Positions 33,784 to 54,835 of a stretch of 64,000 nt of DNA are shown here, in pieces (positions within the stretch are counted from its first letter, which is position 1; every line of letters begins with the position of its first letter). The notes beneath the pieces are model-generated. The model saw only the letters and a program-made list of their open reading frames with translations, was not told the origin of the DNA and did no database searches. Origin of the DNA: an uncultured bacterium. Its GTDB lineage: Bacteria; Krumholzibacteriota; Krumholzibacteriia; LZORAL124-64-63. The position numbers were made by a program, and so were the translations under genes. The DNA lies in assembly GCA_963727525.1 (NCBI GenBank), contig CAVSGO010000007.1, forward strand, positions 1,189,393-1,253,392, read 5' to 3'.

Positions 33784-35287
33784 GATTCTCGATCCAATCG
33801 GAGACGACCTCGCGATCGTCCAGGTGCAGGCGGCGCGACGCGATGAGCTGGTAGTCCTCGTGGCCCTTGCCCGCGATGACGACGATGTCGTCCGCTGCCG
33901 CCGCCGCGAGGGCGGCCGCGATCGCGCTACGCCGGTCCAGTTCCACGACCCGTCCGCGCGCACGTGTCGATGACGCCGCATCGAAACCGGCGACGATCTC
34001 GGCCGCGATGGCGGCCGGATCCTCGCTGCGCGGATTATCGGACGTGATCCAGACAAGATCGGCGAGTTCGGCGGCAACGCCGCCCATCAGCGGCCGCTTG
34101 CCGCGGTCGCGATCGCCCCCGCAGCCGAAGACCACGAGCAGCCGGCCGCGCGTCAGCTCGCGGCAGGTGGTGAGCACGGCCGCCAGCGCGTCGTGGGTGT
34201 GCGCGTAATCGACCACCGCGAGCCCGCCGGCGGGCAGGACGAAGCGTTCGAGCCGACCGGGCACCTGCGGCATGTCGGCGAGGGCGTCGACGCAGGCGTC
34301 GGGCGCGTGGCCGAGCGCGAGTCCGGCGGCGAGGGCCGCGGCGAGATTTTCCACGTTGAACCGGCCGACCAGCGGGCTGCGCAGCGCGAGAGCCCGGCCA
34401 CGCCAGTCGAGGCGCAGGGCGATGCCGCCGGCGTCCAGCCGGGCGTCGGTGACGCGCAGATCGGCGTCCACGTGGGAGCCGGTCGCGAAACGCACGACCT
34501 CGAGCCCTGTGGTGTCGAGAGCCGCGAACGCCGGGTCACCGGCGTTGATCACGGCCATGCCCGTTGCCTTGCCACGCCGCGGACCGTCGCGCAATAGTTC
34601 GAGGATCCGCGCTTTCGCCGCGAGGTAGCTCGCGAGGTCGTGGTGATAGTCGAGGTGGTCGCGACCGAGGTTCGTGAAGACCGCCACGTCGAGGGCCAGC
34701 TCGCCGGTGCGCTCCTGGTCGAGGGCGTGCGACGACACCTCCATCGCCGCGGCGCGGCAGCCGCCGGCGACCATGCGCCCGAGCCAGTGGAAGAGCACCG
34801 GGCCTCCCGGCGTGGTGAGCGGCGCAGGAAGCTGCGTGTGCCCATCATCGTAACGGATGGTGCCGAGCAGGCCGCACGGTCCCACCAGACTGGCCAGCAT
34901 GTCTCGCATGAGGAACGCCACGGTGGTCTTGCCGTTCGTACCGGTGACACCGGCGACAGTGAGCCGGGAGTCCGGTCGTCCCTCGCACTCGCGCGCCAGG
35001 CGGGCAGGCAACCCATGGGTGCTGGGGGCCACCACCCAGGCGGCGGGTTCGCGGTCGGTCAGGGACGACCGGACCTCCTCGTGACGGGCGGCGTCGATCG
35101 CCACGGCGGCCGCGCCCTGGGCAAGCGCAGCGTCCACGAAGCGATGACCGTCCCGTACTGCCACGAAGAGCGAGTCAGGACCTGCCTGACGGGAATCTTC
35201 GGTGACGCGGGCGATGGCCTCATCGGCTCGCCCGAAGATCTCGAGGTCTGGCCAGGGCGCGCACAGCGCATTCAACGCGCTGCCCAC
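33776..35287 (-). CDS. murE: UDP-MurNAc-L-Ala-D-Glu--2,6-diaminopimelate ligase
   Basis: GVTGTNGKTT, DNPR and other MurE motifs. The N-terminus LNALCAPW aligns with E. coli MurE LRDLLAPW, so GTG at 35287 is chosen; the start is uncertain to within about 15 nt. Confidence 0.85.
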   Translation of the reverse strand: MGSALNALCAPWPDLEIFGRADEAIARVTEDSRQAGPDSLFVAVRDGHRFVDAALAQGAAAVAIDAARHEEVRSSLTDREPAAWVVAPSTHGLPARLARECEGRPDSRLTVAGVTGTNGKTTVAFLMRDMLASLVGPCGLLGTIRYDDGHTQLPAPLTTPGGPVLFHWLGRMVAGGCRAAAMEVSSHALDQERTGELALDVAVFTNLGRDHLDYHHDLASYLAAKARILELLRDGPRRGKATGMAVINAGDPAFAALDTTGLEVVRFATGSHVDADLRVTDARLDAGGIALRLDWRGRALALRSPLVGRFNVENLAAALAAGLALGHAPDACVDALADMPQVPGRLERFVLPAGGLAVVDYAHTHDALAAVLTTCRELTRGRLLVVFGCGGDRDRGKRPLMGGVAAELADLVWITSDNPRSEDPAAIAAEIVAGFDAASSTRARGRVVELDRRSAIAAALAAAAADDIVVIAGKGHEDYQLIASRRLHLDDREVVSDWIENHA

Positions 35288-37377
35288 GTCGACTCCATCG
35301 TCACGACCAGTCCGTCGGACGGCAGCGGTTCGCCCGCAGCCGGCGCCTGCGACACCACGTAGCCCACGCCGTCGATGCGCACGGCGATGCCGAGTCGCGC
35401 GGCGAGGGCCTGCACCTGGCGGTTGCTCAGTCCGCCGAGATCGGGGCACACGGCCGCCGTCTGGGGCGCCACGGTCGTGCCGCGCACCGTCAGCACCACG
35501 GTGCTGCCGGTTGCGATGCGGGTGCCCGGTGCTGGAACCTGCTGCAGGACGATGCCGTTCTTGTCGGCGCCGTCCACCAGCAGGCCGGCGGCGACGAGCC
35601 GCGCCGTGGCGACCGGGCTACTCAGATAGAGCACGTCGGGGACGGTGAGCCGCGCGCCAGGCGGATCCATGGCCAGGCGGACGCTCCCACGGTCGAGATC
35701 GGTGAGCCAATCGGTGCTGCGGCGGATCTCCTGCACCACCTGGCCGAAGAGCGGCACGGCGCTCTGGGCCGCGTAGTGATGCCAGCCCCGCGGCTCGTCC
35801 AGCACGGTGAGGATCACGAGACGGGGGGCGTCCCATGGCACGATTCCCGCGAACGTGGCCACGTACTTGTTCGGCGCGTAGCCGCGGCCGTCGACGCTCT
35901 TCTGCGCCGTGCCCGTCTTGCCGCCGAGGGCGATCCAGTCCCGTTGCGCGGCCACGCCGGTGCCCGACGACACGACGCGCGCCATCGCCGTGCGCAGCGT
36001 GCGTGCCAGTGCCGGCGGCATCACCATGCGCAGCGGCGTGGGCGGACAATGGCGCACGAGACTGCCGTCCTGATCGCGAATCTCGCGCACGAGGCGTGGC
36101 GCGAAGAGCGTGCCTCCGTTCGCCACCGCCGCCACGGCCAGGCCGAGTTGCAGGGGCGTGACGGCCACCTCCTGACCGATCGCCATCGTCGCCTGCGACC
36201 GTCCCGACCACTGCGCAGGCGCATGCAGCAGCCCGGCCGGTTCGACCGGGTAGGGCGCGTTCGTGCGCTGGCCGAACCCGAAGGTCTGCAGGTCGCGGTA
36301 GAACTCGCGTGGTGTGAGGTTGGCCACGGCCCGTGCGAAGAACACGTTGCTCGACTTCGCAAAGGCGTCCATGAAGCTGGTGCGACCGAACTCGTGGCCA
36401 TCCGCCTCGCGGATGACGAAGCGGTCGAAGTGGCCGTCGGCGCAGTCGATCGTGGTGGCCGTGTCGATGGCGCCTGCTCCGAGCAGCGAGGCGGCGGTGA
36501 AGATCTTGAAGACCGAGCCCGGCTCGTACTGGAAGCTGAAGTTGCGGTTGTTCCACATCGCCGCATCCGTCACGCGTGCGGTGCGGTCGGCCAGGGTGGG
36601 CCAACTCGCTGCGGCCAGCACGTCGCCGCAGCTCGGATCGATGATGAGCACCGAACCACCGGCTGCGCCGTACTCGCTGACCGCGCGGGTGAGCTGCGAC
36701 TCGCAGATCTCCTGCAGGTCCGCATCGATCGTCAGCTCGACGTCGTGACCGTGTACCGCCGGCGTGACCACCACGTCACCGAGGTTGCGGCGCGGATCGG
36801 CTGAACGCAGACGGATCGCGCGTCCGGGTTGACCGGCCAGCAGCGCGTCGAGGCCGCACTCGAGGCCAGCGGTGCGCTCGTCGCCCCGGGAATCCTGGTG
36901 GTAGAAGCCGATGAGAGACGCCCCGACACCATCCAGCGGATACACGCGCGCGCTGCCCTCGTCGATGGTGATCGCGGGAAAGCGGCGCAACGCCTCCTGC
37001 TGCGCAGGCTCGAGGAACGCATCGCGCCGCAGCGGCAAGAACGCGCCATGCGCCTTCGTGATACGCCGCGCGAGCGCCGCCGGATCCATCCCGACCACAG
37101 GGCCGAGCACCCTGGCGAGCGGCAGCGGATCCTCCACTCGACTCGTGGCGACGCCCAGGGTCGTGGCCGTGACCGACAGCGCGAGGGGCCGCCCGTGGCG
37201 ATCGAAGATGTCGCCGCGGCGCGGCGCCAGCGTGTGGGCCTTCACCCACTGCGCATCGGCCAGCTCGCGGTAGTTCGTGTGTTCGAGGACCTGGACCTGG
37301 ATGAGGCGCGCCACGAGGAGGAGCCCGCCGAGCAGCACGAGTCCGCGGGCCACGCCGAATCGCGCGCGTGTGGTCAT
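35272..37377 (-). CDS. ftsI: Peptidoglycan D,D-transpeptidase FtsI (class B PBP) with two C-terminal PASTA domains
   Basis: N-terminal TM, dimerisation domain, transpeptidase motifs (SxxK: SVFK; SxN; KTG: GKTGTA) and two C-terminal PASTA-like repeats (VPDVLYLSSPVATARLVAAGL...; CPDLGGLSNRQVQALAARLGI...). Confidence 0.85.
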   Translation of the reverse strand: MTTRARFGVARGLVLLGGLLLVARLIQVQVLEHTNYRELADAQWVKAHTLAPRRGDIFDRHGRPLALSVTATTLGVATSRVEDPLPLARVLGPVVGMDPAALARRITKAHGAFLPLRRDAFLEPAQQEALRRFPAITIDEGSARVYPLDGVGASLIGFYHQDSRGDERTAGLECGLDALLAGQPGRAIRLRSADPRRNLGDVVVTPAVHGHDVELTIDADLQEICESQLTRAVSEYGAAGGSVLIIDPSCGDVLAAASWPTLADRTARVTDAAMWNNRNFSFQYEPGSVFKIFTAASLLGAGAIDTATTIDCADGHFDRFVIREADGHEFGRTSFMDAFAKSSNVFFARAVANLTPREFYRDLQTFGFGQRTNAPYPVEPAGLLHAPAQWSGRSQATMAIGQEVAVTPLQLGLAVAAVANGGTLFAPRLVREIRDQDGSLVRHCPPTPLRMVMPPALARTLRTAMARVVSSGTGVAAQRDWIALGGKTGTAQKSVDGRGYAPNKYVATFAGIVPWDAPRLVILTVLDEPRGWHHYAAQSAVPLFGQVVQEIRRSTDWLTDLDRGSVRLAMDPPGARLTVPDVLYLSSPVATARLVAAGLLVDGADKNGIVLQQVPAPGTRIATGSTVVLTVRGTTVAPQTAAVCPDLGGLSNRQVQALAARLGIAVRIDGVGYVVSQAPAAGEPLPSDGLVVTMESTWAAR

Positions 37378-37826
37378 GGCCGCTCCACCCCTGCGGTGGC
37401 GGCCGCGACAGCATCACCGCCGCCGACGTTGCGCAGTACGCGTCGCCACAGATGACCACCACCATGGTGGTTAGGCGTGACCATGACCAGGACCTGCCCC
37501 GGGTCGTCGGGATTGATCATACCCAGCTCGCGGCACGCACGGTCGACCACGACGAGGCGCGACGATGTCTCGTTCCAGCGCGCGGTGAGCACCGCATGCC
37601 GGGTGATGAGCGCGGTACGCTCGCGGGTGAGCGCGCCGATCTCGCTGCGCGCGCGCGTGACCTGGTTGCCGAGAAAGATCGCCGCGGCGAGACCGGCCAC
37701 GACGAGCATCCCGGCGATGACGCCGCACATCACGGGGCGGCCGAGGGTGGCCCGTCGCCGCGCCATCGTGCGCGGGATCTGGCGGGTGGCACCGGTGAAG
37801 AGCCCGGCGACGGTCTGGGTGGTCAC
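37374..37826 (-). CDS. ftsL: Cell division protein FtsL
   Basis: Small bitopic protein (TM GVIAGMLVVAGLAAAIFLG, then coiled-coil) sitting between rsmH and ftsI. GTG at 37826 overlaps the rsmH stop (GTGA). An ATG at 37766 is the alternative start. Confidence 0.55.
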   Translation of the reverse strand: MTTQTVAGLFTGATRQIPRTMARRRATLGRPVMCGVIAGMLVVAGLAAAIFLGNQVTRARSEIGALTRERTALITRHAVLTARWNETSSRLVVVDRACRELGMINPDDPGQVLVMVTPNHHGGGHLWRRVLRNVGGGDAVAAATAGVERP

Positions 37827-38767
37827 GGCGAGCTCCTTGCGGCCGGGGCCAGAACGCGAACCGCGCGCAGCTTGGCGCTGCGCGCGCGTGGATTTTCGGC
37901 GATCTCCGCCGCACCGGGTGTCACGGGGCGGCGCGTGAGCGGCTCGAGCGTGCGCGTGTGTCCGCAGATGCACACCGGCACCGACGGTGGGCACAGACAG
38001 TCGCGCCGCTCGCGATCGATCCAGCGCTTGACGATGCGATCCTCGAGCGAGTGGTAGGCGATGACGACGACGCGCGCGCCGCCGCCAAGCAGCGCGGGCA
38101 GGGCATCGAGGGTGTCGGCGAGGGCCCCCAGCTCGTCGTTGACGGCGATGCGCAGGGCCTGGAACACGCGGCTGAGCACGGCGTTGACGGGCGCCCCCCT
38201 GGGGAGCGCCGTGGTCACGACCTCGCGCAACTGCGCCGTGGTGCGGATCGGCTCCGTCCGACCCGCACCCTTGATGGCCCTTGCCAGTGGCCGCGCTCCG
38301 CGCTCCTCTCCGTATTCTTGCAGGATCCTGGTGAGTGCCATCTCGTCCAGTTCCTCGAGCAGAGCGTGAGCGGGCTGGCCTCGATGCTGGTGGAAGCGCA
38401 AGTCCAGCGGGCCGTCGGCGCGATACGTGAACCCCTTCGTGGGATCGTCGAGCTGCCGCGAGCTGACACCCAGATCCAGCAACAGACCATCCGCACCCTG
38501 CCAGTGCGTATCCGCCAGCGCCTGCGCGATCTGGCGGAAACTCCCATGCCAGCAGTTCAGCCCGGAGCGGTCGGCCGAGATCCGTCTGCATGACGCGACC
38601 GCTTCCTCGTCGAGGTCCAGTCCCAGGACGGTGGCTCCGGCGTCCAGCAGCGCCTGGCTGTGCCCGCCGAATCCGAAGGTCCCGTCGACGATCCGCTTGC
38701 CCGGTCCCGGCTCGAGCCAGCCGAGGACCTCATCCGTGAGCACCGGGACATGCAGCGGCTCGTTCAT
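37823..38767 (-). CDS. rsmH: 16S rRNA (cytosine1402-N4)-methyltransferase RsmH (MraW)
   Basis: MNEPLHVPVLTDEVL...DGTFGFGGHS...DLGVSS motifs. ATG at 38767 overlaps the stop of the upstream STAS-like gene (ATGA). Confidence 0.9.
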   Translation of the reverse strand: MNEPLHVPVLTDEVLGWLEPGPGKRIVDGTFGFGGHSQALLDAGATVLGLDLDEEAVASCRRISADRSGLNCWHGSFRQIAQALADTHWQGADGLLLDLGVSSRQLDDPTKGFTYRADGPLDLRFHQHRGQPAHALLEELDEMALTRILQEYGEERGARPLARAIKGAGRTEPIRTTAQLREVVTTALPRGAPVNAVLSRVFQALRIAVNDELGALADTLDALPALLGGGARVVVIAYHSLEDRIVKRWIDRERRDCLCPPSVPVCICGHTRTLEPLTRRPVTPGAAEIAENPRARSAKLRAVRVLAPAARSSP

Positions 38768-39168
38768 GCCGACTGGACGGGCTGAGTGCCTGCCACCACC
38801 TTCCAACCTTGCGGCAACCACGTGCCGCGCTCGAGTTCGCGATCCCAGTCCTCCATGGCCAGGATCGCATCGAGATACGCGCTCCAACCGACGAGCCGCA
38901 GGCAGTGGCCGAAGGACCGGAGGCCCCGGCTCCAGCGGATCAGCGGCGAGACGCAGCGGTAGTCCATGTGCAGGAGACGCCGGCCGTCAAACACGAGCTG
39001 GCAGCTGCGCGCTGGCAACGCCAGGCTCACCTGGCGCATCAATTCCTGACAACCGTCACGATCGAGGATGCCGGCGAGGGAAACCCGGACCAGGTCGCCA
39101 CGCTGATTGATGCGAAACACGAGAGCCCCTGCCTTCGCAGCGGCCGGCCGGATCTCACCTCGCGGCAT
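38764..39168 (-). CDS. STAS-domain-like small protein (anti-sigma-factor-antagonist-like), inserted between mraZ and rsmH
   Basis: AAGGAG RBS 5 nt upstream of ATG at 39168. The 134-aa product has STAS-like topology (…LVFRINQRGDLVRVSLAGILD…SCQLVFDGRRLLHMDYRCVSPLIRWSRGLRSFGHCLRLVGWSAYLDAIL). The position aligned to the phospho-Ser of DSSG is Tyr/Arg. The upstream roughly 170 codons of ORF-track 38764..39675 are rejected as a high-GC artefact. Confidence 0.5.
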   Translation of the reverse strand: MPRGEIRPAAAKAGALVFRINQRGDLVRVSLAGILDRDGCQELMRQVSLALPARSCQLVFDGRRLLHMDYRCVSPLIRWSRGLRSFGHCLRLVGWSAYLDAILAMEDWDRELERGTWLPQGWKVVAGTQPVQSA

Positions 39169-39206
39169 GTGGGCTCCTTCCCATGACGTCACCCCTCCAT
39201 GGGCGA

Positions 39207-39656
39207 TCAACCGAAGAACGTATCCAGGTGCGCGGACGCCGGCGCGCCCAGCGTGGCCTCGACGATGGCGTAGCGCTCCGGATCCCAGAGCTCGATGTAG
39301 TGCCCCATGCCGATGCACAGGACGCGGCCCGTCACGCCGACGGTCTGCAACAACTCGTTGGGCACCGCCACGCGCCCCTGGCTGTCGGGCACGATCAGCT
39401 GGCTCACCTTGCTGAGTCCGCGCAGCACCATGCGCTTGTCGCGTCCCGCCTCGCCCGTCTGCGCCACCTTGTCGAAGGCCGCGACGAAGGCATCCCGGGG
39501 CATGAGATTCAGCGATCCATCGGGTCCCTTGGTGATCACGAATCCGTCGTCCTTTGCGGCCTTCGCACCCCGGCGCAGCTTGAACGGCAGGTTGAACCGC
39601 CCCTTGGGGTCCACCGCGCGCTCGTAGGAGCCGAAGTATGTGGATTCGCTCATCAT
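39207..39656 (-). CDS. mraZ: Transcriptional regulator MraZ
   Basis: Two SpoVT/AbrB-like halves with DxxxR motifs (DPKGRFNLP..., DSQGRVAVP...). It is the first gene of the dcw cluster. Confidence 0.85.
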   Translation of the reverse strand: MMSESTYFGSYERAVDPKGRFNLPFKLRRGAKAAKDDGFVITKGPDGSLNLMPRDAFVAAFDKVAQTGEAGRDKRMVLRGLSKVSQLIVPDSQGRVAVPNELLQTVGVTGRVLCIGMGHYIELWDPERYAIVEATLGAPASAHLDTFFG

Positions 39657-39670
39657 CGAAACCTGTTTTC

Positions 39671-39737
39671 ACCAATCTTCACCATAAGACCCCACTGCCA
39701 ACCACTGGACTGTAGTTCTTCCCCACCACAAAGTCAA
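39671..39737 (-). promoter_or_regulatory. mraZ promoter (-35 TTGACT / -10 TACAGT) followed by four 10-bp-phased GTGGN repeats (putative MraZ operator)
   Basis: On the minus strand: TTGACT (39737-39732), 17-nt spacer, TACAGT (39714-39709). Downstream of this come GTGGT/GTGGG/ATGGT/TTGGT at exact 10-bp spacing (plus-strand ACCAA 39671, ACCAT 39681, CCCAC 39691, ACCAC 39701), overlapping the predicted TSS to +35. This resembles the direct-repeat MraZ boxes of other bacteria. Confidence 0.45.
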
Positions 39738-39746
39738 TAGGCTCGC

Positions 39747-39780
39747 GCAAAAAAAAGTGCGGTCCCTGTCCAGGGACCGC
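39747..39780 (-). terminator. Rho-independent terminator ending the glycan-gene operon
   Basis: Minus strand GCGGTCCCTG-GA-CAGGGACCGC (perfect 10-bp stem) followed by ACTTTTTTTTGC. It lies 40 nt after the flippase gene stop and directly upstream of the mraZ promoter. Confidence 0.6.
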
Positions 39781-39820: not shown

Positions 39821-41107
39821 TCAGAGCTTCAGGTCCCCCATCCGTGGTACCAGCAGATCGCGCCATGGCGCTTGCGTCACCGACCGGAAACGCACCAGCA
39901 TGATCGTGCTACCGACGGCGTAGGCCACGCTCGACGCCCAGGCGGCCCCCACGGCGCCATGGGTCGGGATCCAGGCCAGACAGAGGGCAACGTTGGCCGC
40001 CACCGTCGCGGCGCTGGCCTGGGTATTCCAGCCCGACCGGCCGCGGCCGATGAAATCGCCCGCCAGCACCGCCCCCGGGGCGAAGCAGACGATGCCAGGC
40101 AGCAATGCGCGCAGAGGCGCGGCCGACGCCGCGTAACTGCCACGAAAGAGCCACCCGAACACGGGTCCAGCGAGCAACGCCACGAACACCGCCCCCACGG
40201 CCGTGAGCGTCAAGCCCAGGCGCACCGCGCGCGCGGCCGTGGCGTCGCGCACGTGCGGATCGCCGACGTCGGCCGAGGAATGCACGAGGAACGGATTGAG
40301 CGCCTCGGGCAGCATCCAGAGCATCTCCCCCGCCCACACCGCCACGCTATAGATCCCCACCGCCGCCGCGCCGTGATCGAACTCGAGGAAGCCCTGGTCC
40401 ACGCGCAGGAGCAGGAGATACGCCACCGCCGAAAGCTGACCGAGCCAGCCGTGGCGCAGACACCAGCCCACGAGGCGCGGGATCGACGGCGCCGACGCGA
40501 ACTCCGCACGCCCGGACAGCGCGCGTACGGCGAGGATCGCGAGGGCGACCGCCGCCCCCACCTGCACCGCGGCGTACACGCCGATCGCCCCCCGCAGGTT
40601 GAGCGAACCGACGAGGACGAGGACCGCCACACCAGCGAGCTGGGCGATGGCGCGGCCGGCGTTCACGATGGTGCCGGTCACGAGCCGACCGGTGGCCAGC
40701 AGGTCGTAGGTATGGATATCGAAGGCCACCAGTGCCAGCGTGGCCGCGGCCGTGGCGACGAGGCCGAAGCGATCCCACCCCAGGTGCCGCGTGATCCCGG
40801 ACCAGGCGTGCCCCCGCTGCACGGCGAGCACGACCGCGGCGAGCACGAGTGCCAGCAGTCCGAGCCAGCACGCCTGCGCCACGAGCAGGCGCCGCGCGGG
40901 AAGCGTGCGCTGGCGTAGCGGCGGCACGGCGGCCAGGCCCATGCCGCCGTTGAGCAGGGCGGCGACGACCATGGCCACCATCATCGTGAGGCTGAAGTAT
41001 CCCTGCCCCGCGGGACCGAGATGGCCCGCGAGCAGAACCACGACGAGTGCGCCCGCCGCCTTCTGCACGATGCGCCAGACGACGATGCGCGAACCCGTGC
41101 CGACCAT
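39821..41107 (-). CDS. MOP-superfamily polysaccharide flippase (Wzx/MurJ-like)
   Basis: About 12-14 TM helices across 429 aa. It is the last gene of the glycan operon. ATG at 41107 lies 2 nt after the upstream stop. Confidence 0.7.
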   Translation of the reverse strand: MVGTGSRIVVWRIVQKAAGALVVVLLAGHLGPAGQGYFSLTMMVAMVVAALLNGGMGLAAVPPLRQRTLPARRLLVAQACWLGLLALVLAAVVLAVQRGHAWSGITRHLGWDRFGLVATAAATLALVAFDIHTYDLLATGRLVTGTIVNAGRAIAQLAGVAVLVLVGSLNLRGAIGVYAAVQVGAAVALAILAVRALSGRAEFASAPSIPRLVGWCLRHGWLGQLSAVAYLLLLRVDQGFLEFDHGAAAVGIYSVAVWAGEMLWMLPEALNPFLVHSSADVGDPHVRDATAARAVRLGLTLTAVGAVFVALLAGPVFGWLFRGSYAASAAPLRALLPGIVCFAPGAVLAGDFIGRGRSGWNTQASAATVAANVALCLAWIPTHGAVGAAWASSVAYAVGSTIMLVRFRSVTQAPWRDLLVPRMGDLKL

Positions 41108-41109
41108 TG

Positions 41110-42114
41110 TCACGGCCCACCCCGCAGCGTCCGCCGCATCGCCGCCGCCACGGTCCACAGCGGATGCGAGCGGCGGAGCTGGCAACGCACCTCCTCGGCC
41201 GCCCCCATCAGGCGCTTGAACTGCCGCAGGCCGGTGCGCCCCGCGTAGCCGCCGAAGTCAAGGACCCGCGCGCCGCGTGCACATCCCTCGACGATGTCCT
41301 GCCAGTAGAGCAGGGTCGAGGGAAAGACCTCGCGCGCCAGATCCGGACGGCTCGCGCCGTAGAGCGCCGCGACGCGGTCGCGCCAGGCGATGCAGAAATG
41401 GCCGCCGACGATCACTCCCCGCCGCCGCACCAGGGCGAAGAACGCGTGCTGTGAACGCTCGCGCAACAGGGCCTGCATGAACTCGAGCGGCACCGGCGCC
41501 TGCGCCCAGCTGGCGGCCACGTCCAGATAGATGGCATACCAGGCGGCGACGTCGTCGGGATCGGTGCTCGTGTGCAGTGTGCAGCCGCGTTTCAGCCCGC
41601 GATTGCGTTCGTTGCGGCGGTTATTCGAGAGCACGGTGCGCTCGATGTGGGCGAGGCCGCCCGAGAGATCGATCACGGCGGTAGCCACGTCTTCCCGTTG
41701 CCAGCCGGACGCCGCCGGCACGAGCGCCGACTGCGCCGCACTCAGCGTCACCGCGGCGGTGATCGTGCGGCCGCGCACACTCGCGCCGCAGGCGTCGAGA
41801 AGGGCCCCGGCCACGCGCCTCCGTTCGGCCGGCGTCAGGTCGTCGCTCACCTGGGGGCCGGCCGGACTGCCCTCGAGGCCGCTCTCGAGCCGATCGAAAC
41901 CGTGGCGACGGCGGCTGAGCGCCACCAGCCCGCCCACGAGAGCGCCCTCGCGGTGGGCCGCCCACCAGCGCTGCGCGGCATGCGGGTAGTACCGGGCCGC
42001 GGCGTCGTTCCACCATGCGGACGCGGCGAAGTCGGTCGCCGCGACACCGTCGAGCCACGCATCCCAGCCCGCGGGCGCCGTACCGCCGCTCGTGACCGTG
42101 ATCACCGCAGGCAT
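41110..42114 (-). CDS. FemAB-like / BioF2-like GNAT-fold acyl- or peptidyl-transferase
   Basis: Its length, position in a glycan cluster and composition match the GNAT-fold FemAB-like proteins commonly encoded in EPS/O-antigen loci; the assignment is by family resemblance only. Confidence 0.5.
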   Translation of the reverse strand: MPAVITVTSGGTAPAGWDAWLDGVAATDFAASAWWNDAAARYYPHAAQRWWAAHREGALVGGLVALSRRRHGFDRLESGLEGSPAGPQVSDDLTPAERRRVAGALLDACGASVRGRTITAAVTLSAAQSALVPAASGWQREDVATAVIDLSGGLAHIERTVLSNNRRNERNRGLKRGCTLHTSTDPDDVAAWYAIYLDVAASWAQAPVPLEFMQALLRERSQHAFFALVRRRGVIVGGHFCIAWRDRVAALYGASRPDLAREVFPSTLLYWQDIVEGCARGARVLDFGGYAGRTGLRQFKRLMGAAEEVRCQLRRSHPLWTVAAAMRRTLRGGP

Positions 42115-43529
42115 GGTCGCTCGAGCAACGTGGCCAGAGCATCACGGACCCCGCGCCGGTCGCCCAGCGCCGCGAGGTCGAGTAGGTGCGGCATCAGGCG
42201 GGCCGCCGCGTCGGGATCACCGGTGCGGCAACGCGCCTGGTTGATCAGCGGGTTGGCGCTGGTCTCGAGCACCTCGCCGGGATCCAGCAACGACTCGTGG
42301 CACTTCTCGCCGGGCCGCAGGCCCACGATCTCGATCCCGGGTCCGAGATCGTCGTTCTCCACGTCGAATCCCGACAGCGCGAGCAGCGTGCGCGCCAGTT
42401 CCAGGATCGACACCGGGTCGCCCATTTCGAGGATGTACGTAGCACCCGCCTCGCCCAGGACCATGGCCTCGAGGACCAGAAGCGCCGCTTCCTTGATGGT
42501 CATGAAGTAACGCGTCATCTGCGGGTCCGTGATCGGCAACGGCAAGCCCTGAGCGATGCGCCGCTGGAAGAACGGCACCACCGAGCCGCGGCTGCCGAGC
42601 ACATTGCCAAAGCGCACCGTCATGAAGCGCGTCGACCCGGGACCGGCCTGGGCATGCCGTACGAGAAGCTCTGCGAGCTTCTTCGTGGCGCCCATGATGC
42701 TCTGCGGCGCGACCGCCTTGTCGGTGCTCACCATCACGAAGCGCTCGGCGACGACCTCCCGCGCGAACGCGATGAGATTGGCCGTGCCGCCGCCGTTGAC
42801 GACCACGGCCTCCTCGGGATTCGCCTCCATCAGGGGCACGTGCTTGTGGGCCGCGGCGTGCAGAATGAGCTGCGGGCGGTGCCGCTGCGCGAGCACAGTG
42901 AGACGGGCCGCGTCGCGCACGTCGCACACCACCGTCGTGAGCCGGGTCTTGCCGGCGCGCGGCGCCAGCTCGCCGTGGATCTCGAAGAGGCTGTTTTCGC
43001 CGCGGCCGAGCAAGATGAGTTCCTGCGGCTGCAGTGTCAGGAGCTGGCGGCACAGCTCGCCACCGATCGATCCGCCAGCACCGGTCACGAGTACGGTGCG
43101 CCCCTCCACAACGTCGCGCGCCGGACCGGTCTGGAAGGTCACCGTCTCGCGGCCGAGCAGATCCTCGGGCGCGATGGGGCGCACCTGCTGGAAGCTGACG
43201 TCGCCCTCGATGATGGCGCGCAGGCCAGGCACGATGCGAAAGGGCAGCTTCGCGCGCCGGCACAGCATGAGCAAGCGGCGGATGAGCGCCCCGCGCGCAC
43301 TCGGGATGGCCAGCAGGATCTCCTGCGCGCTGACCGCGCGGGCCGCGTCCACCAGGTGGGTCGTATCGCCGACCACCGGCAGCCCGACCACTTCCTTCCC
43401 CAGCAGGGCGGCATCGTCGTCGACGAAACCGACCGGCTCGACGGCCAGATCCTGTTCGCGGATCTGCCGCACCAGCGAGCGTCCGGCCTCGCCGGCGCCG
43501 ACGATGAGCAAGCGCGCCTTGGTGGTCAA
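42102..43529 (-). CDS. CapD/PglF/WbpM-like NDP-sugar 4,6-dehydratase (soluble form lacking the TM region)
   Basis: Rossmann motifs LIVGAGEAG and VLVTGAGGSIGGEL plus a catalytic MVSTDKAV...Y...K region. TTG at 43529 (GGAAAGGA RBS, TTGA overlap with the upstream stop) is preferred over the ORF-track start at 43730. Confidence 0.75.
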   Translation of the reverse strand: MTTKARLLIVGAGEAGRSLVRQIREQDLAVEPVGFVDDDAALLGKEVVGLPVVGDTTHLVDAARAVSAQEILLAIPSARGALIRRLLMLCRRAKLPFRIVPGLRAIIEGDVSFQQVRPIAPEDLLGRETVTFQTGPARDVVEGRTVLVTGAGGSIGGELCRQLLTLQPQELILLGRGENSLFEIHGELAPRAGKTRLTTVVCDVRDAARLTVLAQRHRPQLILHAAAHKHVPLMEANPEEAVVVNGGGTANLIAFAREVVAERFVMVSTDKAVAPQSIMGATKKLAELLVRHAQAGPGSTRFMTVRFGNVLGSRGSVVPFFQRRIAQGLPLPITDPQMTRYFMTIKEAALLVLEAMVLGEAGATYILEMGDPVSILELARTLLALSGFDVENDDLGPGIEIVGLRPGEKCHESLLDPGEVLETSANPLINQARCRTGDPDAAARLMPHLLDLAALGDRRGVRDALATLLERPCLR

Positions 43530-45499
43530 CGAGCGTCCTTTCCCGATTCGCGACTGCCGCCGGGCTGGAACCAGAGCGTCCGCCAGGTAGATCCGCGTCC
43601 GCCCGCCCAGGCGCCGGTGAGTCCCGGCGGCGCCGAGATCGCGTTCCAGAACGGATCGGCGTCCCAGGCGTTCGGCCGCGGCCCCACGAGGGACACGTGC
43701 CCCCGCAACAGTGCGACGACCAGCGGCCACTGCCTCCAGAGGGGCAAGATGCGCCCATCCCGGCCGGTCGCAATCGTGACCCGGAGATTATGCCCGCCCG
43801 CGCCGCGCCAGTCGATGATTTCCCGCCCCGAATGACCGCGCGACCAGACCGCCACCACCGCCAGGGCCGCCCCCACGACCAGCCCCAGCACCCTCAGGCC
43901 GGCGCGACGCAGAGTCTGTCCATCGTCCGGGTCGAGCACGCCGCTCACGTCCGCACCGAAAGTCTCCGCCCGGGCCCCGGCCTCGAGCATCCAGGCTTCG
44001 TCGATGCGCCAACGCAGTCGGATGCGCGCGCGGCGCAGCTGCGCGAGCTCGGCCGCATCGCCCCGGGGAGCCTGCCAGAACACGACCTGGGACACCCGCA
44101 GCCGCTCGACGAGTGCCGGCAGCTCCTGCACCGGCCCGAGCCACGGGATCTCCAGCTCCTGGTCCGTGACGGGCGCATCGGTCACGTAGCCCACGGGATC
44201 GATCCCCTCGCGGCGCGGGTCCGGACAGCCGCCCAACCACTGCTGGAGCTGCGCGGGCGTGGCCACGAGCAACGTGCGCTCCAGGGAGAAGTAGCCGCGC
44301 TCCATGCGACGCCGCAGGCGGGTGAAGATCTGTTCACCCAGGATGGTCAGCCCGGTGAACAGCGCCAGGAAGAGCACGAGCACCGCGCGACTCACGACGT
44401 CCTGTCGACCGAGGTACGGCGTCGCCAGCAGGAGCAGCCCCACGAGGCCCTGCTGCCGCACATACTCGCCCAGTCGCGTGAGTCGGCGCAGCCGCTCGCC
44501 CCGGTACCGCCCCAGGAGCAGGAACGTCACCGTCACGAGCAGGGCGGCGTACGCCAGGAAGCCGCGATACCAGGACAGCGGGAAGAGGGTCTCGGGAAAC
44601 AATGGCTGGAACGCACGCCGCACCCCGTACGCAGTGAGGAAGGCGACGAGAAGCAGCACCATGTCCAGCAGCCAGAGCCCGATCTGGTCGAGCGGTTGCC
44701 GCCACTTCTTGAGCAGGTAGACGAGCACGCCCCACTTCTCGTAGAACGACATCAGGCTCGTCAGGTGCAGCCAGTAGCTGCGCGTCAGCGGGCCGCGCGC
44801 ACTGGCGCGCCGGTGGCGGTGCACGAAACGCGCAGCGGGCGTGTAGACGACCTCATACCCGCAGCGCCACATGCGGTAGCACCAGTCGACGTCCTCGAAG
44901 TACAGGAAGAAGCGCTCGTCCATCGGTCCGCACCGCGCCAGCGCGTCGCGCCGCACCAGGAGGCAGCCGCCCAGCACCCAGTCCACCGGACGTTCGCTCA
45001 AATGGTCGAAGTCGCGCATGAGATGGCGACTCACCGTGCGGCTGCGGGGAACGACGCGTCCCAGCGGCGTCCGCCGCAGCAGCAGCGTGCGCAGGGTGTA
45101 GAAGCGCCGACACGACTCCTGCACGCTGCCGTCGTCGTTGAGCAGTTGCGGACCGATGATGCCGGCGCGCGGCCGTGCGGCGGCGAAGGCCACGAGCGCG
45201 TCGAGCGAGCCCGGCAGCACCACGATGTCGGGATTCAGGATGAGGTAATAGTCGGCCGCCACCTGCGCGAGTCCCTGGTTGCACCCGCGCGCGTAGCCCC
45301 GGTTCTCGGTGTTCATGAGCCAGTGGCAGGCCGGAAAACGATCGCGCACACGATCGAGATCGGGGGCGGTGCTCGCGTTGTCCACGACGACGATCTCGTG
45401 GGCACACGCCGGCGCTTGCTCGTGCAGCGAGGCCAGGCATCGCTCGAGATCGTCGGGCGTGTTGTAATGAATGATCACGATGCCGAGCGTCACCGACAT
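43526..45499 (-). CDS. Bifunctional GT2 glycosyltransferase fused to a bacterial sugar-transferase (phosphoglycosyl transferase, PF02397-like) domain
   Basis: N-terminal GT2 (IVIIHYNTPDDLERCL...VVDNAST, DxD in the FEDVDW region), central TM helices, and a C-terminal LRGHVSLVGPRP...PGLTGAW that matches the ...MSLVGPRP...KPGITG motif of priming sugar transferases. ATG at 45499 shares 1 nt with the upstream stop. Confidence 0.7.
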   Translation of the reverse strand: MSVTLGIVIIHYNTPDDLERCLASLHEQAPACAHEIVVVDNASTAPDLDRVRDRFPACHWLMNTENRGYARGCNQGLAQVAADYYLILNPDIVVLPGSLDALVAFAAARPRAGIIGPQLLNDDGSVQESCRRFYTLRTLLLRRTPLGRVVPRSRTVSRHLMRDFDHLSERPVDWVLGGCLLVRRDALARCGPMDERFFLYFEDVDWCYRMWRCGYEVVYTPAARFVHRHRRASARGPLTRSYWLHLTSLMSFYEKWGVLVYLLKKWRQPLDQIGLWLLDMVLLLVAFLTAYGVRRAFQPLFPETLFPLSWYRGFLAYAALLVTVTFLLLGRYRGERLRRLTRLGEYVRQQGLVGLLLLATPYLGRQDVVSRAVLVLFLALFTGLTILGEQIFTRLRRRMERGYFSLERTLLVATPAQLQQWLGGCPDPRREGIDPVGYVTDAPVTDQELEIPWLGPVQELPALVERLRVSQVVFWQAPRGDAAELAQLRRARIRLRWRIDEAWMLEAGARAETFGADVSGVLDPDDGQTLRRAGLRVLGLVVGAALAVVAVWSRGHSGREIIDWRGAGGHNLRVTIATGRDGRILPLWRQWPLVVALLRGHVSLVGPRPNAWDADPFWNAISAPPGLTGAWAGGRGSTWRTLWFQPGGSRESGKDAR

Positions 45500-46215
45500 C
45501 ACGGAATCTTCTTCAGCCGCAGGGCCCACACCACCCACGCCGCTTCCAAGATGATCCGTCGCGACATCTTGCTCATGCCGACCTGCCGATCGACGAAGAG
45601 TATCGGAATCTCCTTGATGCGCATCCCGCGTTTCCACACGTGGTACGTCACCTCGATCTGGAAACTGTAGCCGTCGCTCTTGATCCGGTCGAGGGGCAGC
45701 GCCGCGAGGGTCGAGCGGCGGAAGCACTTGAAGCCGCCCGTGCAATCGCTGACCGGCAGGCCCGTGATCAAGCGCGCGTAGTGATTGGCGCCCACGCTGA
45801 GGATGAGCCGGCTCAGCGGCCAGTTCACCACCGTGATGCCATGCAGATAGCGGCTACCGAGCACGAGATCGTGGTCGGCGATCTCGCGCAGGAATTGGGG
45901 CAGCGCCGTGGGGTCGTGGCTATGATCGGCATCCATCTCGAAGATCACGTCGCATTCGGTGTTGGCCAGCACCCACTGGAAGCCGGCGATGTAGGCCTGT
46001 CCCAGGCCGGCCTTGCTGGGCCGCAGCAGTAGATGCAGCCGCGTGCCGAAGCCGGGCAGACCGCGCACCACGTCGGCCGTGCCATCGGGCGAGCTGTCGT
46101 CCACGACCAGCACGGCGAGCCGGGGATCCTGCGCGAGGATCTCGGGTACGATGCGCGCGATGTTCTCCGCCTCGTTGTAGGTCGGTACCACCACGATGGG
46201 CCGCATCTCACTCAT
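45499..46215 (-). CDS. GT2 polyprenyl-phosphate sugar synthase (Dpm1/Ppm1-like, e.g. polyprenol-P-mannose synthase)
   Basis: IVVVPTYNEAENI...VVDDSSPDGT...EMDADHSHDP...GFKCFRR motifs are typical of the dolichyl/polyprenyl-phosphate mannosyl/glucosyl transferase family. There is no C-terminal TM. GGAGG RBS. Confidence 0.75.
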   Translation of the reverse strand: MSEMRPIVVVPTYNEAENIARIVPEILAQDPRLAVLVVDDSSPDGTADVVRGLPGFGTRLHLLLRPSKAGLGQAYIAGFQWVLANTECDVIFEMDADHSHDPTALPQFLREIADHDLVLGSRYLHGITVVNWPLSRLILSVGANHYARLITGLPVSDCTGGFKCFRRSTLAALPLDRIKSDGYSFQIEVTYHVWKRGMRIKEIPILFVDRQVGMSKMSRRIILEAAWVVWALRLKKIP

Positions 46216-48643
46216 GTCGCCTCCACCCCACCACCAGCAGTACGACGATGCCTAAAAGTCCGATCAGGCTGGCGACGAATCCCGCGCGCAGACCAGGCGT
46301 GTGGTAGGCGAACCGCACCTCGTGTTTTCCCGCCGGCAACGCCACGGCCCGCAACGCGTGGTCGGCCGTCAGCAACGGCTGTGCCGCGCCGTCCACGTGG
46401 ACGATCCAGCCCGGAGCGGCGAGGTCGGCAAGCACGAGCACCGCGGGCGACGGCGCCTCGGTCGCCAGCACGATCTCGTCGGGACCGTCCTTCACGAACG
46501 TCGGGCGCGGCAGTGGTGCCTCGGCGGGCACGGGCGGCGGTTCCGGGACCTGGTCGAGCACGACGGCCGCGCTCGCGTCGTGACGACCGGCGACGATCGC
46601 ATCGAGGAATGGACCGAGCGAATCGTTCGCCGCGATTGTGAAGCGGTCGACCAGCCGGGCCCGCGGCAAGGCGGCGCGATTGTGGTAGAGCCACATGTTC
46701 CCGACAGTCTGCGGCGTGGGTTCGAGGTCGAGCCCGACCTGGCGCAGCACGTCGAACGCCTCGGCCGGCAGCGCGCGCGCGAAGGTGACCGTCGTCGCTC
46801 CGAGCCAGTTCGCGAGGTGGCCGCTGGGCATCTGCCCGAAGAGCCGCTGGCGCAGTTCCTCGGCCACCGCCGGCTTGGCCGGGTAGTAGCCGCCGAGCGA
46901 CCGCACACCCACGGTCATGTAGGCATTGCTCTGGCTGTCGCGCGCCAGCGGGTACACGCGCTCGTGCCCCACCCCGGCCTGAAGCGCGGCGGCCAGAGCC
47001 GGATCGACGAGCGGGGCGCGCTGGCGACGATAGGGATGCTCGAGCCGGGCGGCGGCCAGGAGGCGCCCGCGTCCCTGCGAGTCGGCCACGACCTGCTGCA
47101 GGGCTGTCTGCGGTGCCGTCACCAGCCTCGCCACGGAACCCAGGTCCACGCACAGGAGCAGCGCGAGCACCCACACCAGCGCCCGCGCCCGGAAGACCGC
47201 GTGCCGCGTGGCCAGGAAGATCGCCCCGGCGGCCGCGAGCAGCACCAGGCCGTCGCGCACGAGGAAACTCTTCTGGAGAGCCCAGGCGCCGTCGAGCAGC
47301 ACGTCGACCGCCTGCTTGCCCGTGCCCGCGGCGACGTCCCGCAGATGGCTGCGGAACGCGCCGGCCGTGGCGCCGGACGCGCCGGCGACGAGCGTGAGCG
47401 CGCCGAGCGCCGCGAGCACGATGAGCACGATGCGCCGTTGCCGGTCACGTCCGGGGGCATCCTCGGCCAGCGCCGCCGCCCCCTGGCCCGCCAGGACCGC
47501 TGCCACGAAGGCCAGTAGCACCAGGATCATCGAGGGCACGCGGAACTTGTCGAAATACGGCAGTGCGGCATACATCGCCTGGTACAGGCCCGGACTGCGG
47601 CCTCCCAGGGCTACCAGCAGCGCCAGCACACCGGCGACCGCGCAGCAGAGCACCAGGCTGCGCCGCCGCGTCCACCAGGCCGCGCCGGCCAGCACCAGCC
47701 ATAGCCAGCCGAGGTAATTGGGATAGTCGGTGAAGGGCATCGGTCCCATGTACGTGGCCTTGCCGAAGCCCATGGCGCCGGGCTGCACCAGCGTCGGGAT
47801 CTCCTGCGGTCCGAGGCTCCAGGCCGTGGCGTAGTCGAAGCCCACACCGCCTCCCGCTCCGCTCCCGCCGCGGGTCGAGATGGCCGCGTAGTCGTGCACC
47901 GGAAGCAGCATCACGGCGCCCACCAGGAACGCGAGCGCCAGGGCAACGGCCACCAGTCCGGCGCGCCGCAACCGCGCGCCGATCGGCACGACGTCACCCA
48001 GGGGCCAGGCGACGTGCCACACGACGATGAATCCGAGCAGCAGAAGCGTGTAGTACGTGATCTGCACGTGCCCGCGCAGGAATTGCAGTCCGAGCAGCAA
48101 TGCCAGCCAGCCCACAGAACGCAGGCGCCCGCGCGTGAGCACGTCGAAGGTCAACCCCACCAGCCAGGGCAGGTACATCGCCGCGCCCAGCTTGCTGCCG
48201 TGTCCGTACACGCTCCACGCCACGATGCGCGCGAACATGAGCCAGCCCACGGCGCCCACGACCCGCGCCGCCAGCGGCAGGCGCCAGCGGCCCAGCAGCC
48301 ACACCATGCCCAGACCGCCGAAGACGAGATGGGCAAGCAGCCACGTCAGCGGCGGGAAATGGAGCTGGCGCTGGAGGAACTCGAGGATCAGGCCCGGCGG
48401 ATAGAGCCCTGGTGTGTAGGCTAGCGAACCGAAGGTGGGCATGCCGATGAAGATGAACGGAGTCCACTGGGGATAGCCGCCCGCCGCGTCGCCGGCCAGC
48501 CGGAACGCGTCGGAGCTCTCGGCGTCGGCGCTCTGGAACACGTGGCCGCGGAACATGGCCCCCGGATAGAGCCATGCCAGTATCAGGACCACGGCCAGGG
48601 CGGGCGCCCAGGCGCGCAGTCGGGACAGCGGCGGCATGGTCAC
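46208..48643 (-). CDS. YfhO-family polytopic membrane protein (GT-C fold glycosyltransferase using polyprenyl-P-sugar donors)
   Basis: 811 aa with at least 13 TM helices and a C-terminal extracytoplasmic domain plus a terminal TM, which is the YfhO architecture. GTG at 48643 has an AAGGAGG RBS (5-nt spacer). Confidence 0.7.
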   Translation of the reverse strand: MTMPPLSRLRAWAPALAVVLILAWLYPGAMFRGHVFQSADAESSDAFRLAGDAAGGYPQWTPFIFIGMPTFGSLAYTPGLYPPGLILEFLQRQLHFPPLTWLLAHLVFGGLGMVWLLGRWRLPLAARVVGAVGWLMFARIVAWSVYGHGSKLGAAMYLPWLVGLTFDVLTRGRLRSVGWLALLLGLQFLRGHVQITYYTLLLLGFIVVWHVAWPLGDVVPIGARLRRAGLVAVALALAFLVGAVMLLPVHDYAAISTRGGSGAGGGVGFDYATAWSLGPQEIPTLVQPGAMGFGKATYMGPMPFTDYPNYLGWLWLVLAGAAWWTRRRSLVLCCAVAGVLALLVALGGRSPGLYQAMYAALPYFDKFRVPSMILVLLAFVAAVLAGQGAAALAEDAPGRDRQRRIVLIVLAALGALTLVAGASGATAGAFRSHLRDVAAGTGKQAVDVLLDGAWALQKSFLVRDGLVLLAAAGAIFLATRHAVFRARALVWVLALLLCVDLGSVARLVTAPQTALQQVVADSQGRGRLLAAARLEHPYRRQRAPLVDPALAAALQAGVGHERVYPLARDSQSNAYMTVGVRSLGGYYPAKPAVAEELRQRLFGQMPSGHLANWLGATTVTFARALPAEAFDVLRQVGLDLEPTPQTVGNMWLYHNRAALPRARLVDRFTIAANDSLGPFLDAIVAGRHDASAAVVLDQVPEPPPVPAEAPLPRPTFVKDGPDEIVLATEAPSPAVLVLADLAAPGWIVHVDGAAQPLLTADHALRAVALPAGKHEVRFAYHTPGLRAGFVASLIGLLGIVVLLVVGWRRHE

Positions 48644-48661
48644 ACGGCCCTCCTTCGCGAT

Positions 48662-49591
48662 TCAGGTTAGCATTCCCGGCGCAGGATTGTCCACCGGCGC
48701 CGCCCGCAGCTCGTCGAGGGCACCTTGTACCAGGGCCAGGGCCGTCGCCCAGCGGCCGTGCCACAGATGCCACACGTAGTGGCCGCCGAAGTAGGCGAGC
48801 TGGCCCAGGGCGAGCGCGGGCCAGTCGCGGACCGGCCAGTGGCGGCGCAGCAGCTTGATGTGGCTGCGGCTGCGCAGGTACGCCTTCCGCGGACTGCCGA
48901 CGCCGAGGCTGGCGCTCACACGGTGCAGGATGAGCGCGCGTGGCACGTGCAGGATCTCGCCGCCCCGCTCGCGCATGCGCAGGCTGTAGTCGGCATCCTC
49001 GCCGTAGAAGTAGAAATCGGTGTCGAGCAGACCGAGCCGCTGAAGGTTCTCACGCGCGAGCAGCAAGGCGCACCCCGTGCCGTAGTCGACGAAACGCTGC
49101 TCGAGGGAGAGCTTGCCGGTGAGCTTGCGGATCCCCTCGTGGCTCACCCAGCCGCTCCAGCGGCCCACACGCCCACCGTCGTACCAGGCGCGCGCGGGGT
49201 CGTCGAAGTAGCAGATGCGCGGCGTGGCCGCCCAGGCGCGCGGCTCGGCCGCGAGCGCGGTGGTGAGCCGTTCGAGGCTGCCCTGGGGCACGCTCGTGTC
49301 GTTGTTCAGCAGGAGCACCTGGTCCTGCGGCAGCCCTTCCTCGAGCAGGCGTTGCAGGGCGAGGTTGTTGCCCGCCGCCCACCGCAGGTTGCGGTCCGAC
49401 TCGATGATCTCGACCTCGGGATGGTGCTTGCGCACGAAGGCCAGCGAGCTGTCCGTGGACGCGTTGTCGACGAGAAGCACTCGCAGATCGGGATAGCCCG
49501 CGTCCCGGAGGGAGCGCAGGCAGTCCGGCAGGACCTCGCGGCCGTTCCAGTTCACCACCACGACCACCAGGCTCGGCAGGGTATCAGACAC
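48662..49591 (-). CDS. GT2 family glycosyltransferase
   Basis: LVVVVVNWNGREVLPDCL...LLVDNASTDSS and DxD motifs. Overlaps the upstream GT2 by 8 nt. Confidence 0.8.
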   Translation of the reverse strand: MSDTLPSLVVVVVNWNGREVLPDCLRSLRDAGYPDLRVLLVDNASTDSSLAFVRKHHPEVEIIESDRNLRWAAGNNLALQRLLEEGLPQDQVLLLNNDTSVPQGSLERLTTALAAEPRAWAATPRICYFDDPARAWYDGGRVGRWSGWVSHEGIRKLTGKLSLEQRFVDYGTGCALLLARENLQRLGLLDTDFYFYGEDADYSLRMRERGGEILHVPRALILHRVSASLGVGSPRKAYLRSRSHIKLLRRHWPVRDWPALALGQLAYFGGHYVWHLWHGRWATALALVQGALDELRAAPVDNPAPGMLT

Positions 49592-54755: not shown

Positions 54756-54835
54756 ACTGTCCCCTTACGTAAGCGGAATGAATACGCGCACTTCAGGCCG
54801 CAGAAGGTAACACACGGTCAAATGGGCGACAACCC

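Follow-up and report, generated by a model that had tools for sequence, protein, structure and literature searches.

To our knowledge, few gene pairs of bacteria are as conserved as mraZ followed directly by rsmH, which is otherwise almost never split, and we know of no worked-out mechanistic link between MraZ and RsmH. Eraso et al. reportedly found in 2014 that the toxicity of MraZ overproduction in E. coli is relieved by RsmH. Among described STAS proteins, those closest to the one treated here are the anti-sigma antagonists SpoIIAA and RsbV, which are phosphorylated at a serine, and MlaB, a subunit of the MlaFEDB lipid transporter. In targets of the RNA-binding proteins CsrA/RsmE, such as glgC, a hairpin with an ANGGAN hexaloop stands shortly before the ribosome-binding site, which itself carries a second site, and the dimer bridges distances of 10-63 nt (PMC7652899). 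Here we analysed 64,000 nucleotides of DNA from an uncultured bacterium of the Krumholzibacteriota (assembly GCA_963727525.1, contig CAVSGO010000007.1, positions 1,189,393 to 1,253,392; this whole stretch is called the window), in which a gene for a 134-aa STAS-fold protein (38764..39168, minus strand) is inserted between mraZ and rsmH. Judged from the related loci compared, the dcw (division and cell wall) operon of Krumholzibacteriota has this gene fixed in second place. A whole lineage would thus have fixed a third player between mraZ and rsmH, a STAS domain without the phosphorylation switch, in lock-step with RsmH and behind a conserved RNA element of its own.

An earlier note on this DNA, made from the sequence alone, had reported the insertion and asked whether it is conserved in relatives. 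When one genome per GTDB species was scanned, 12 loci with the STAS gene were obtained; a metagenome scan added 38, and the contigs of three among the most divergent members were also examined. The order mraZ, STAS gene, rsmH, ftsL-like gene, ftsI was kept in all 57 related loci having enough flank, and among the loci examined there were neither exceptions to the order mraZ-STAS-rsmH nor copies of the STAS gene elsewhere. Those of the 57 loci that carry a phylum label are metagenome-assembled genomes of Krumholzibacteriota. In the GTDB scan, four loci were labelled Candidatus Krumholzibacteriota or Krumholzibacteriia, four 'uncultured Fibrobacteraceae' and four 'bacterium' or 'uncultured bacterium'; since the genes of the second group cluster with the Krumholzibacteriia type, we took these labels as mislabels. 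The homologues fall into more than 100 clusters at 90% identity. When a family profile was searched against 1.84 billion representative proteins, only 18 scored below E 1e-10; in descending order, the last near-full-length members had 71 bits, short fragments about 50, and generic STAS proteins 48 or less. By this profile the family is narrow and discrete. In full-text searches of the literature, no report of a STAS gene within a dcw cluster turned up.

The 134-aa open reading frame reported earlier at these coordinates and its AAGGAG ribosome-binding site were both borne out. The start codon is an ATG at 39168..39166 (minus strand), the AAGGAG lies at 39178..39173 (minus strand), 5 nt before this ATG, and the gap between mraZ and the STAS gene measures 38 nt. 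At the other end, the TGA stop codon (38766..38764) shares bases with the ATG of rsmH (38767..38765), giving ATGA. The product matched Pfam STAS_2 (PF13466) over residues 29-105 with 38.1 bits (E 1.8e-9), the gathering cut-off of this family being 29.2 bits. The G+C fractions at codon positions 1, 2 and 3 were 0.71, 0.50 and 0.80, a pattern of the coding type, and the ratio of nonsynonymous to synonymous substitution rates (dN/dS) in close pairs ranged from 0.00 to 0.34, with most values at or below 0.25, indicating purifying selection. We conclude that 38764..39168 is a real gene under strong conservation and that it encodes a STAS-fold protein of one domain.

The STAS-like pattern noticed earlier was confirmed by the Pfam score and also by modelling and structural superposition. 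An AlphaFold2 model built from 13 family sequences had a mean predicted local distance difference test score (pLDDT) of 80.9, with ten-residue blocks above 90 across residues 21-100, and showed the element order beta1-beta2-alpha1-beta3-alpha2-beta4-alpha3. Foldseek matched this model to more than 25 STAS chains of the PDB with a probability of 1.00. The best matches were the SpoIIAA chains 1til_B and 1tid_B (E 5e-7, template modelling (TM) scores 0.67/0.76, root-mean-square deviation 2.2 Å), followed by TM1442, the Haliangium antagonist 4hyl and RsbV 6m36 (6m36_B; target TM up to 0.87), with RsbS, SLC26 STAS domains and MlaB at lower ranks. When the family profile was compared with PDB sequences, SpoIIAA chains were the only matches (E 0.003-0.1). 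As modelled, the protein has a fold of the SpoIIAA/RsbV type. PF13466 was carried by all listed homologues except P0029 and the fragment P0034, and their database labels read 'STAS domain-containing protein' or 'MlaB component'. Both ends of the protein are conserved as well: the N-terminus M-P-[RSG]-E-x-[TI]-R is kept family-wide, yet was modelled as disordered (pLDDT below 50), and the final residue is nearly always Pro, because its codon CCA provides the A of the rsmH ATG.

The residue that corresponds to the phosphorylated serine of SpoIIAA had been suspected not to be Ser, and this was found throughout the family. A profile alignment placed 'hlDYRCv' of the family on 'fmDSSGl' of SpoIIAA, so that Tyr70 falls on the position of phospho-Ser58; in 49 distinct sequences this position was occupied by Tyr in 44, by Phe in four and by Pro in one, and none of the 49 had, at the N-terminal end of helix 2 where the D-S-S-G motif lies, a Ser or Thr that could be phosphorylated. 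Since Phe cannot accept a phosphate, the aromatic side chain at position 70 is presumably structural or part of a binding face. From the alignment, Tyr or Phe at this position is no phospho-acceptor, so a phosphorylation switch is predicted to be missing. Phosphorylation of Tyr70 itself was considered and is made unlikely by the four members with Phe. The residues kept in at least 85% of the 49 sequences form a family signature, L31-x-G33-x-L35-D36, D61-G62, L65-x-H67-[LM]-D69-[YF]-R71, W79, H88, W95-x-x-Y98-L99 and I102, to which E106-D107-W108 (motif M-E-D-W-D) can be added for most members, not all. About 30 positions reach this degree of conservation among sequences that are only 40-60% identical. 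In the model, the first, third and last groups of the signature belong to the beta2-alpha1, beta3-alpha2 and beta4-alpha3 segments, which we take to be the partner-binding face in the SpoIIAA and RsbV complexes. By analogy, we infer that these three conserved segments correspond to the surface used for partner binding by characterised STAS proteins. Within the clade of the window Cys72 does not vary, and in other clades it is replaced by Ala or Val, for which reason a redox or metal role is unlikely. A metal site formed by H67, D69, C72 and H88 was ruled out on the same replacement and on the location of H88 at the far end of its strand in the model.

The operon to which the gene belongs was delimited from the following features, in the order of transcription.

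39759..39780, minus strand: hairpin and T-run resembling an intrinsic terminator, ending the upstream operon
39709..39737, minus strand: sigma-70-like promoter, TTGACT-17-TACAGT (one site found versus 0.3 expected)
39207..39656, minus strand: mraZ, first gene of the operon (Pfam MraZ, E 6.9e-18; MraZ chains of the PDB, E ~1e-8)
38764..39168, minus strand: STAS-fold gene, 134 aa (Pfam, AlphaFold2 model, homologue alignments)
38764..38767, minus strand: ATGA stop/start overlap of the STAS gene and rsmH (sequence; 46 distinct junctions)
37823..38767, minus strand: rsmH, 16S rRNA m4C1402 methyltransferase (TIGR00006, E 1.6e-85; PDB 1wg8 and 3tka)
37374..37826, minus strand: small ftsL-like gene with one predicted membrane helix (position and overlaps)
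35272..37377, minus strand: ftsI, a PBP3-type transpeptidase (tblastn conservation; homologues with Pfam PBP_dimer and Transpeptidase)

Because the terminator-like hairpin closes the upstream operon, mraZ opens a new transcription unit. Between mraZ and rsmH there was no promoter-like or terminator-like site; both types were found only upstream of mraZ. Of 46 distinct junctions, 44 had the overlap of 4 nt between the STAS gene and rsmH in frame, with GTGA in L002, and the remaining two also read ATGA, but had problems in the frame of rsmH. The translational coupling to rsmH proposed earlier from the ATGA in the window is therefore supported as a conserved trait of these junctions. Similar overlaps follow downstream. 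The GTG start of the ftsL-like gene shares bases with the stop of rsmH (GTGA), as does its own stop with the ATG of ftsI (ATGA), so that the STAS gene, rsmH, the ftsL-like gene and ftsI are one overlap chain in the window; in homologous loci the same overlaps run on into murE and murF. Owing to this chain, the start of the STAS gene is the only free-standing initiation region from mraZ to at least ftsI. The product of the ftsL-like gene had no Pfam match, and a gene was called at this place between rsmH and ftsI also in L002, L053 and L055. Around and downstream of the promoter-like site, at 39660..39735 (minus strand), GTGG-type repeats with a spacing of about 10-12 nt were seen by eye (GTGGTGGGG, AGTGGTTGG, AGTGGGG, ATGGTGA, TTGGTGA), the first of them inside the spacer of the promoter-like site. 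These repeats may be MraZ boxes.

The 38 nt in front of the STAS gene hold two hairpins, which were analysed in aligned mraZ-STAS spacers from 39 distinct loci.

39189..39206, minus strand: RNA hairpin 1, UCGCCC-AUGGAG-GGGUGA, with a 6-bp stem, directly after the mraZ stop (covariation)
39171..39182, minus strand: RNA hairpin 2, GGG-AAGGAG-CCC, with a 3-bp stem and the Shine-Dalgarno sequence in a second A-N-G-G-A-N hexaloop

The consensus of hairpin 1 is CCGCCC-ACGGAG-GGGCGG. Compensatory changes were observed in six of seven pairs, and its covariation of 0.332 compares with 0.139 in shuffles (0 of 500 attained the observed value) and with at most 0.095 when the partners were slid. In its hexaloop A-N-G-G-A-N, the A, G, G and A never vary, nor does the closing C-G. 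Hairpin 2 has two invariant G-C pairs and a loop-closing pair that is G-C in 26 loci and A-U in 13, unbroken in all of them; this switch may be one evolutionary event. The GGA triplets of the two hairpins are about 23 nt apart. Like the CsrA targets of PMC7652899, the leader has two ANGGAN hexaloops, one of them at the Shine-Dalgarno sequence, and a spacing within 10-63 nt. As read from these alignments, the layout of the hairpin pair is that of CsrA-type repression sites. Of the signals of the STAS gene, the earlier note had seen the ribosome-binding site and missed the double GGA-hairpin leader around it. Searches of Rfam with the spacers of the window and of three loci gave no match even at permissive E-values. 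The window contained no second element with a hairpin and a GGA Shine-Dalgarno sequence, and its four ANGGAN hairpins overall compare with 3.3 expected by chance, therefore no regulon is visible here.

Two groups of loci deviate in this region. In the clade with H-L-D-Y-R-A-T (L023, L025-L029, L031, L032, L038-L045, L048), the mraZ-STAS spacers are 150-280 nt long and show, by eye, two extra upstream hairpins with GGA loops of the types GGCA-AGGA-TGCC and GGCGCCG-ACGGAU-CGGCGCC; the resulting four GGA loops in a row are reminiscent of CsrB/RsmZ-like decoys. In L010, L011, L013, L014, L034, L036, L046 and L051, the ancestral start ATG-CCG-AGA-GAG is replaced by GCG-CCG-AGA-GAG and an in-frame ATG stands 6-7 nt past hairpin 1. 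In this clade the start appears to have moved upstream, in which case the GGAG loop of hairpin 1 would be the ribosome-binding site and hairpin 2 would be coding.

Our best reading of these data, which we put forward tentatively, is that the gene encodes a dosage-controlled, non-phosphorylatable STAS adaptor that binds a partner, possibly RsmH or MraZ. Such a protein would act as a stoichiometric protein-binding adaptor, regulated by its amount rather than by phosphorylation, and this amount would be set by the MraZ-controlled operon promoter together with the GGA-hairpin leader. A CsrA-type RNA-binding protein could clamp the leader and block initiation, and since the STAS gene, rsmH, the ftsL-like gene and ftsI are joined by overlaps of 4 nt, translation of the entire chain would be gated at the leader. 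The STAS gene probably adds a new control point to division-gene expression. As partners we judged RsmH, which would be made in a fixed ratio with the STAS protein, and MraZ, the operon's own regulator, to be the most economical candidates, and a third protein between the two is attractive because of the genetic antagonism of MraZ and RsmH said to exist in E. coli.

Several observations weigh against this proposal. CsrA homologues are reported from Krumholzibacteriota, and few of them are predicted to be functional in the B. subtilis-based model of the same study (PMC13443453). No CsrA gene lies within the window or the related loci. Hairpin 1 of the window contains a G-U pair and has an alternative minimum-energy fold, single-sequence folding energies were no better than those of shuffles (z +0.8 to -1.9), and it is covariation only that supports the hairpins. 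Since the loops resemble Shine-Dalgarno sequences, a role in ribosome standby or in stability is possible. As to the partner, no test made here pointed to one: mirror-tree partial correlations were weak (0.38 for STAS-MraZ and 0.30 for STAS-RsmH, with FtsI controlled, over 23 loci with non-independent pairs), no domain fusion naming a partner was found in the search of 1.84 billion proteins, and RsmH and MraZ are ordinary here in size and sequence. The mirror-tree values were discarded as a means of choosing between MraZ and RsmH, the correlations being too weak and the pairs too non-independent. The apparent fusions proved to be artefacts, namely a repeat-ridden eukaryotic enzyme (P0027), a frameshift read-through (P0030) and a chimera (P0026).

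A bolder version, which we regard as a long shot, is that the STAS protein supplies the physical link that has been missing between MraZ and RsmH, as a phosphorylation-independent partner switch that would hold one according to the state of the other, while a CsrA-type leader gates the STAS-rsmH-ftsL-ftsI chain. If this were true, transcription of the division operon would be tied to ribosome maturation, and there would be a mechanistic handle on why, throughout Bacteria, mraZ and rsmH have stayed joined at the start of the dcw cluster. Even a partner identified as either MraZ or RsmH would expose a functional link of the two, and if the hairpins are CsrA sites, a single gated initiation site would place the division operon, with ftsL and ftsI, directly under global post-transcriptional control. 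The proteins and the leader RNA of 45 nt (39166..39210, minus strand) are small and easily tested in heterologous hosts, despite the uncultured state of the organisms.

Of the other explanations, the one that survives best, albeit as an unlikely one, is a classical anti-sigma antagonist that binds a kinase of the RsbW/SpoIIAB type encoded elsewhere, frees a sigma factor and acts by dosage. Like a SpoIIAA with a permanent Ser-to-Ala change, its effect would be set by its level only, and it would link a sigma regulon to dcw expression. The structural comparison is in its favour, as SpoIIAA, RsbV and other antagonists, some of them solved with their kinases, were the best matches and SpoIIAA was also the best match of the PDB sequence-profile search. 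The window, moreover, holds a phosphatase and a sigma-70-family protein, among the following signalling genes.

1297..3780, plus strand: phosphatase with PDZ, GAF and SpoIIE (PP2C) domains (Pfam)
8126..9007, minus strand: sigma-70-family protein of 293 aa with regions 1.2 to 4 (Pfam)
~12965..13315, plus strand: stand-alone CheY-like receiver

The earlier note had named the first and the last of these genes as potential components, with the STAS gene, of a partner-switching module wired into the division operon. The genes themselves are real. The one described as PDZ-TM-PP2C stood as to its PDZ and phosphatase domains, with the architecture PDZ, GAF and SpoIIE, and the orphan receiver is present. 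Their suggested part in a partner switch did not stand, however, since the three genes lie 26-37 kb from the STAS gene, the phosphatase and the receiver are missing from the flanks (up to 6 kb) of the related loci, which contain genes for the cell wall and for polysaccharides, and none of the three is linked to the dcw operon in these loci. Neither tblastn searches of the window and the 57 loci, with RsbW and SpoIIAB as queries, nor a Pfam scan of roughly 43 window proteins revealed a GHKL anti-sigma kinase. Against TIGR00377, the anti-sigma-antagonist family, the STAS protein scored 15 bits, under the cut-off of 53.45. With no kinase gene, no phospho-site, a score below this cut-off and a distant phosphatase and receiver, a classical partner-switch module is not supported. 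The same results count against an antagonist that acts through a kinase encoded elsewhere, as do the lack of Ser or Thr at the phospho-site, with Phe in some members, the distance of 30-37 kb to the phosphatase and sigma genes, which are outside the conserved neighbourhood, and the fact that the STAS gene was seen solely in the slot between mraZ and rsmH.

Improbable, in our view, is an accessory subunit like MlaB, which would tune an ABC-type ATPase such as MlaF or the FtsE of FtsEX by docking on it. MlaB belongs to STAS_2, the Pfam family that the protein matched, several homologues were labelled 'MlaB component' by JGI, and MlaB chains appeared among the Foldseek matches at ranks 27-44. However, these structural matches were much weaker (query TM, TMq, ~0.5 versus 0.67 for SpoIIAA/RsbV), MlaB was missing from the PDB sequence-profile search at E values up to 10, and there was no ABC transporter gene in the conserved neighbourhood or among the scanned genes of the window.

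A still slighter chance is given to the reading frame being mainly a translated leader, which, controlled by the GGA hairpins, would supply rsmH, the ftsL-like gene and ftsI with ribosomes, its product having little function of its own. Although nothing in the locus varies less than the stop/start overlap and the regulated region of initiation, a leader needs no folded domain of 120-140 aa, and the amino-acid sequence is under strong purifying selection, with the conserved positions listed above and a domain that is confidently folded in the AlphaFold2 model. Finally, a chance open reading frame in DNA of 69% G+C, the artefact that the earlier note had allowed for, can practically be dismissed: long spurious frames are common in the window (201 of at least 120 aa versus roughly 50 genes) and two on the other strand overlap this locus, but the Pfam score above the cut-off, the homologues, the low dN/dS, the coding-type G+C at the third codon position and the conserved ribosome-binding site and position exclude it.

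Some further observations concern the neighbouring genes. Upstream of mraZ, at 39821..42114 (minus strand), and separated from it by the terminator-like hairpin, there are two genes that are conserved together with mraZ, also in L001, L002 and L053-L055, one for a PF13480 (FemAB-like GNAT) acetyltransferase and one for a protein of 430-455 aa without a Pfam match that is hydrophobic by eye. Farther away, at 43526..57399 (minus strand), lies an envelope glycosylation block with several GT2 and GT4 glycosyltransferases, a YfhO-like protein and epimerases, as well as a TMEM260-like O-mannosyltransferase of 1066 aa and a membrane domain resembling lysyl-phosphatidylglycerol synthase. RsmH (37823..38767, minus strand) carries at residues ~255-270 a stretch with four cysteines, C-L-C-P-P-S-V-P-V-C-I-C-G-H, which is not present in the Thermus RsmH structure 1wg8 and is unmatched in E. 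coli 3tka, and which may be a metal-binding insertion.

Compared with SpoIIAA/RsbV (STAS, PF01740, TIGR00377), the protein is alike in being a single domain of about 110-135 aa with the same order of elements, in having these proteins as its best structural matches (target TM up to 0.87, root-mean-square deviation 2.1-2.3 Å) and in keeping L-x-G-x-L-D; by analogy, its conserved residues would lie in the segments described as the kinase contacts of SpoIIAA. It differs in having D-Y-R-[CAV] for D-S-S-G, with Tyr or Phe in place of the phosphorylated Ser, in scoring under the TIGR00377 cut-off, and in its operon, which is without a kinase, phosphatase or sigma gene, has mraZ and rsmH as neighbours in all 57 loci and is always a dcw operon with coupling to rsmH. 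With MlaB (STAS_2, PF13466) it shares the Pfam family by score and, by analogy, possibly the way of working of a STAS protein that is not related to sigma factors and docks on a partner, whereas it has no mla or other ABC genes nearby, shows a weaker structural similarity and gives no profile match to MlaB chains. The leader resembles the CsrA/RsmE leaders of glgC and hcnA in its ANGGAN hexaloop hairpin just before the ribosome-binding site, a second GGA/ANGGAN loop at this site and a bridgeable spacing; unlike them, it lies within an operon between two genes and not in a 5' untranslated leader, has no Rfam family and occurs in a phylum without studies of Csr regulation. What is new is the lineage-wide fixed context, the lost phosphorylation site and an RNA leader of its own, while the STAS domain itself is known. 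With the canonical head of the dcw cluster, the locus has in common the gene order, the promoter upstream of mraZ and the tight overlaps downstream, and it departs from it by an extra gene and an extra initiation region, which would be regulated, between mraZ and rsmH.

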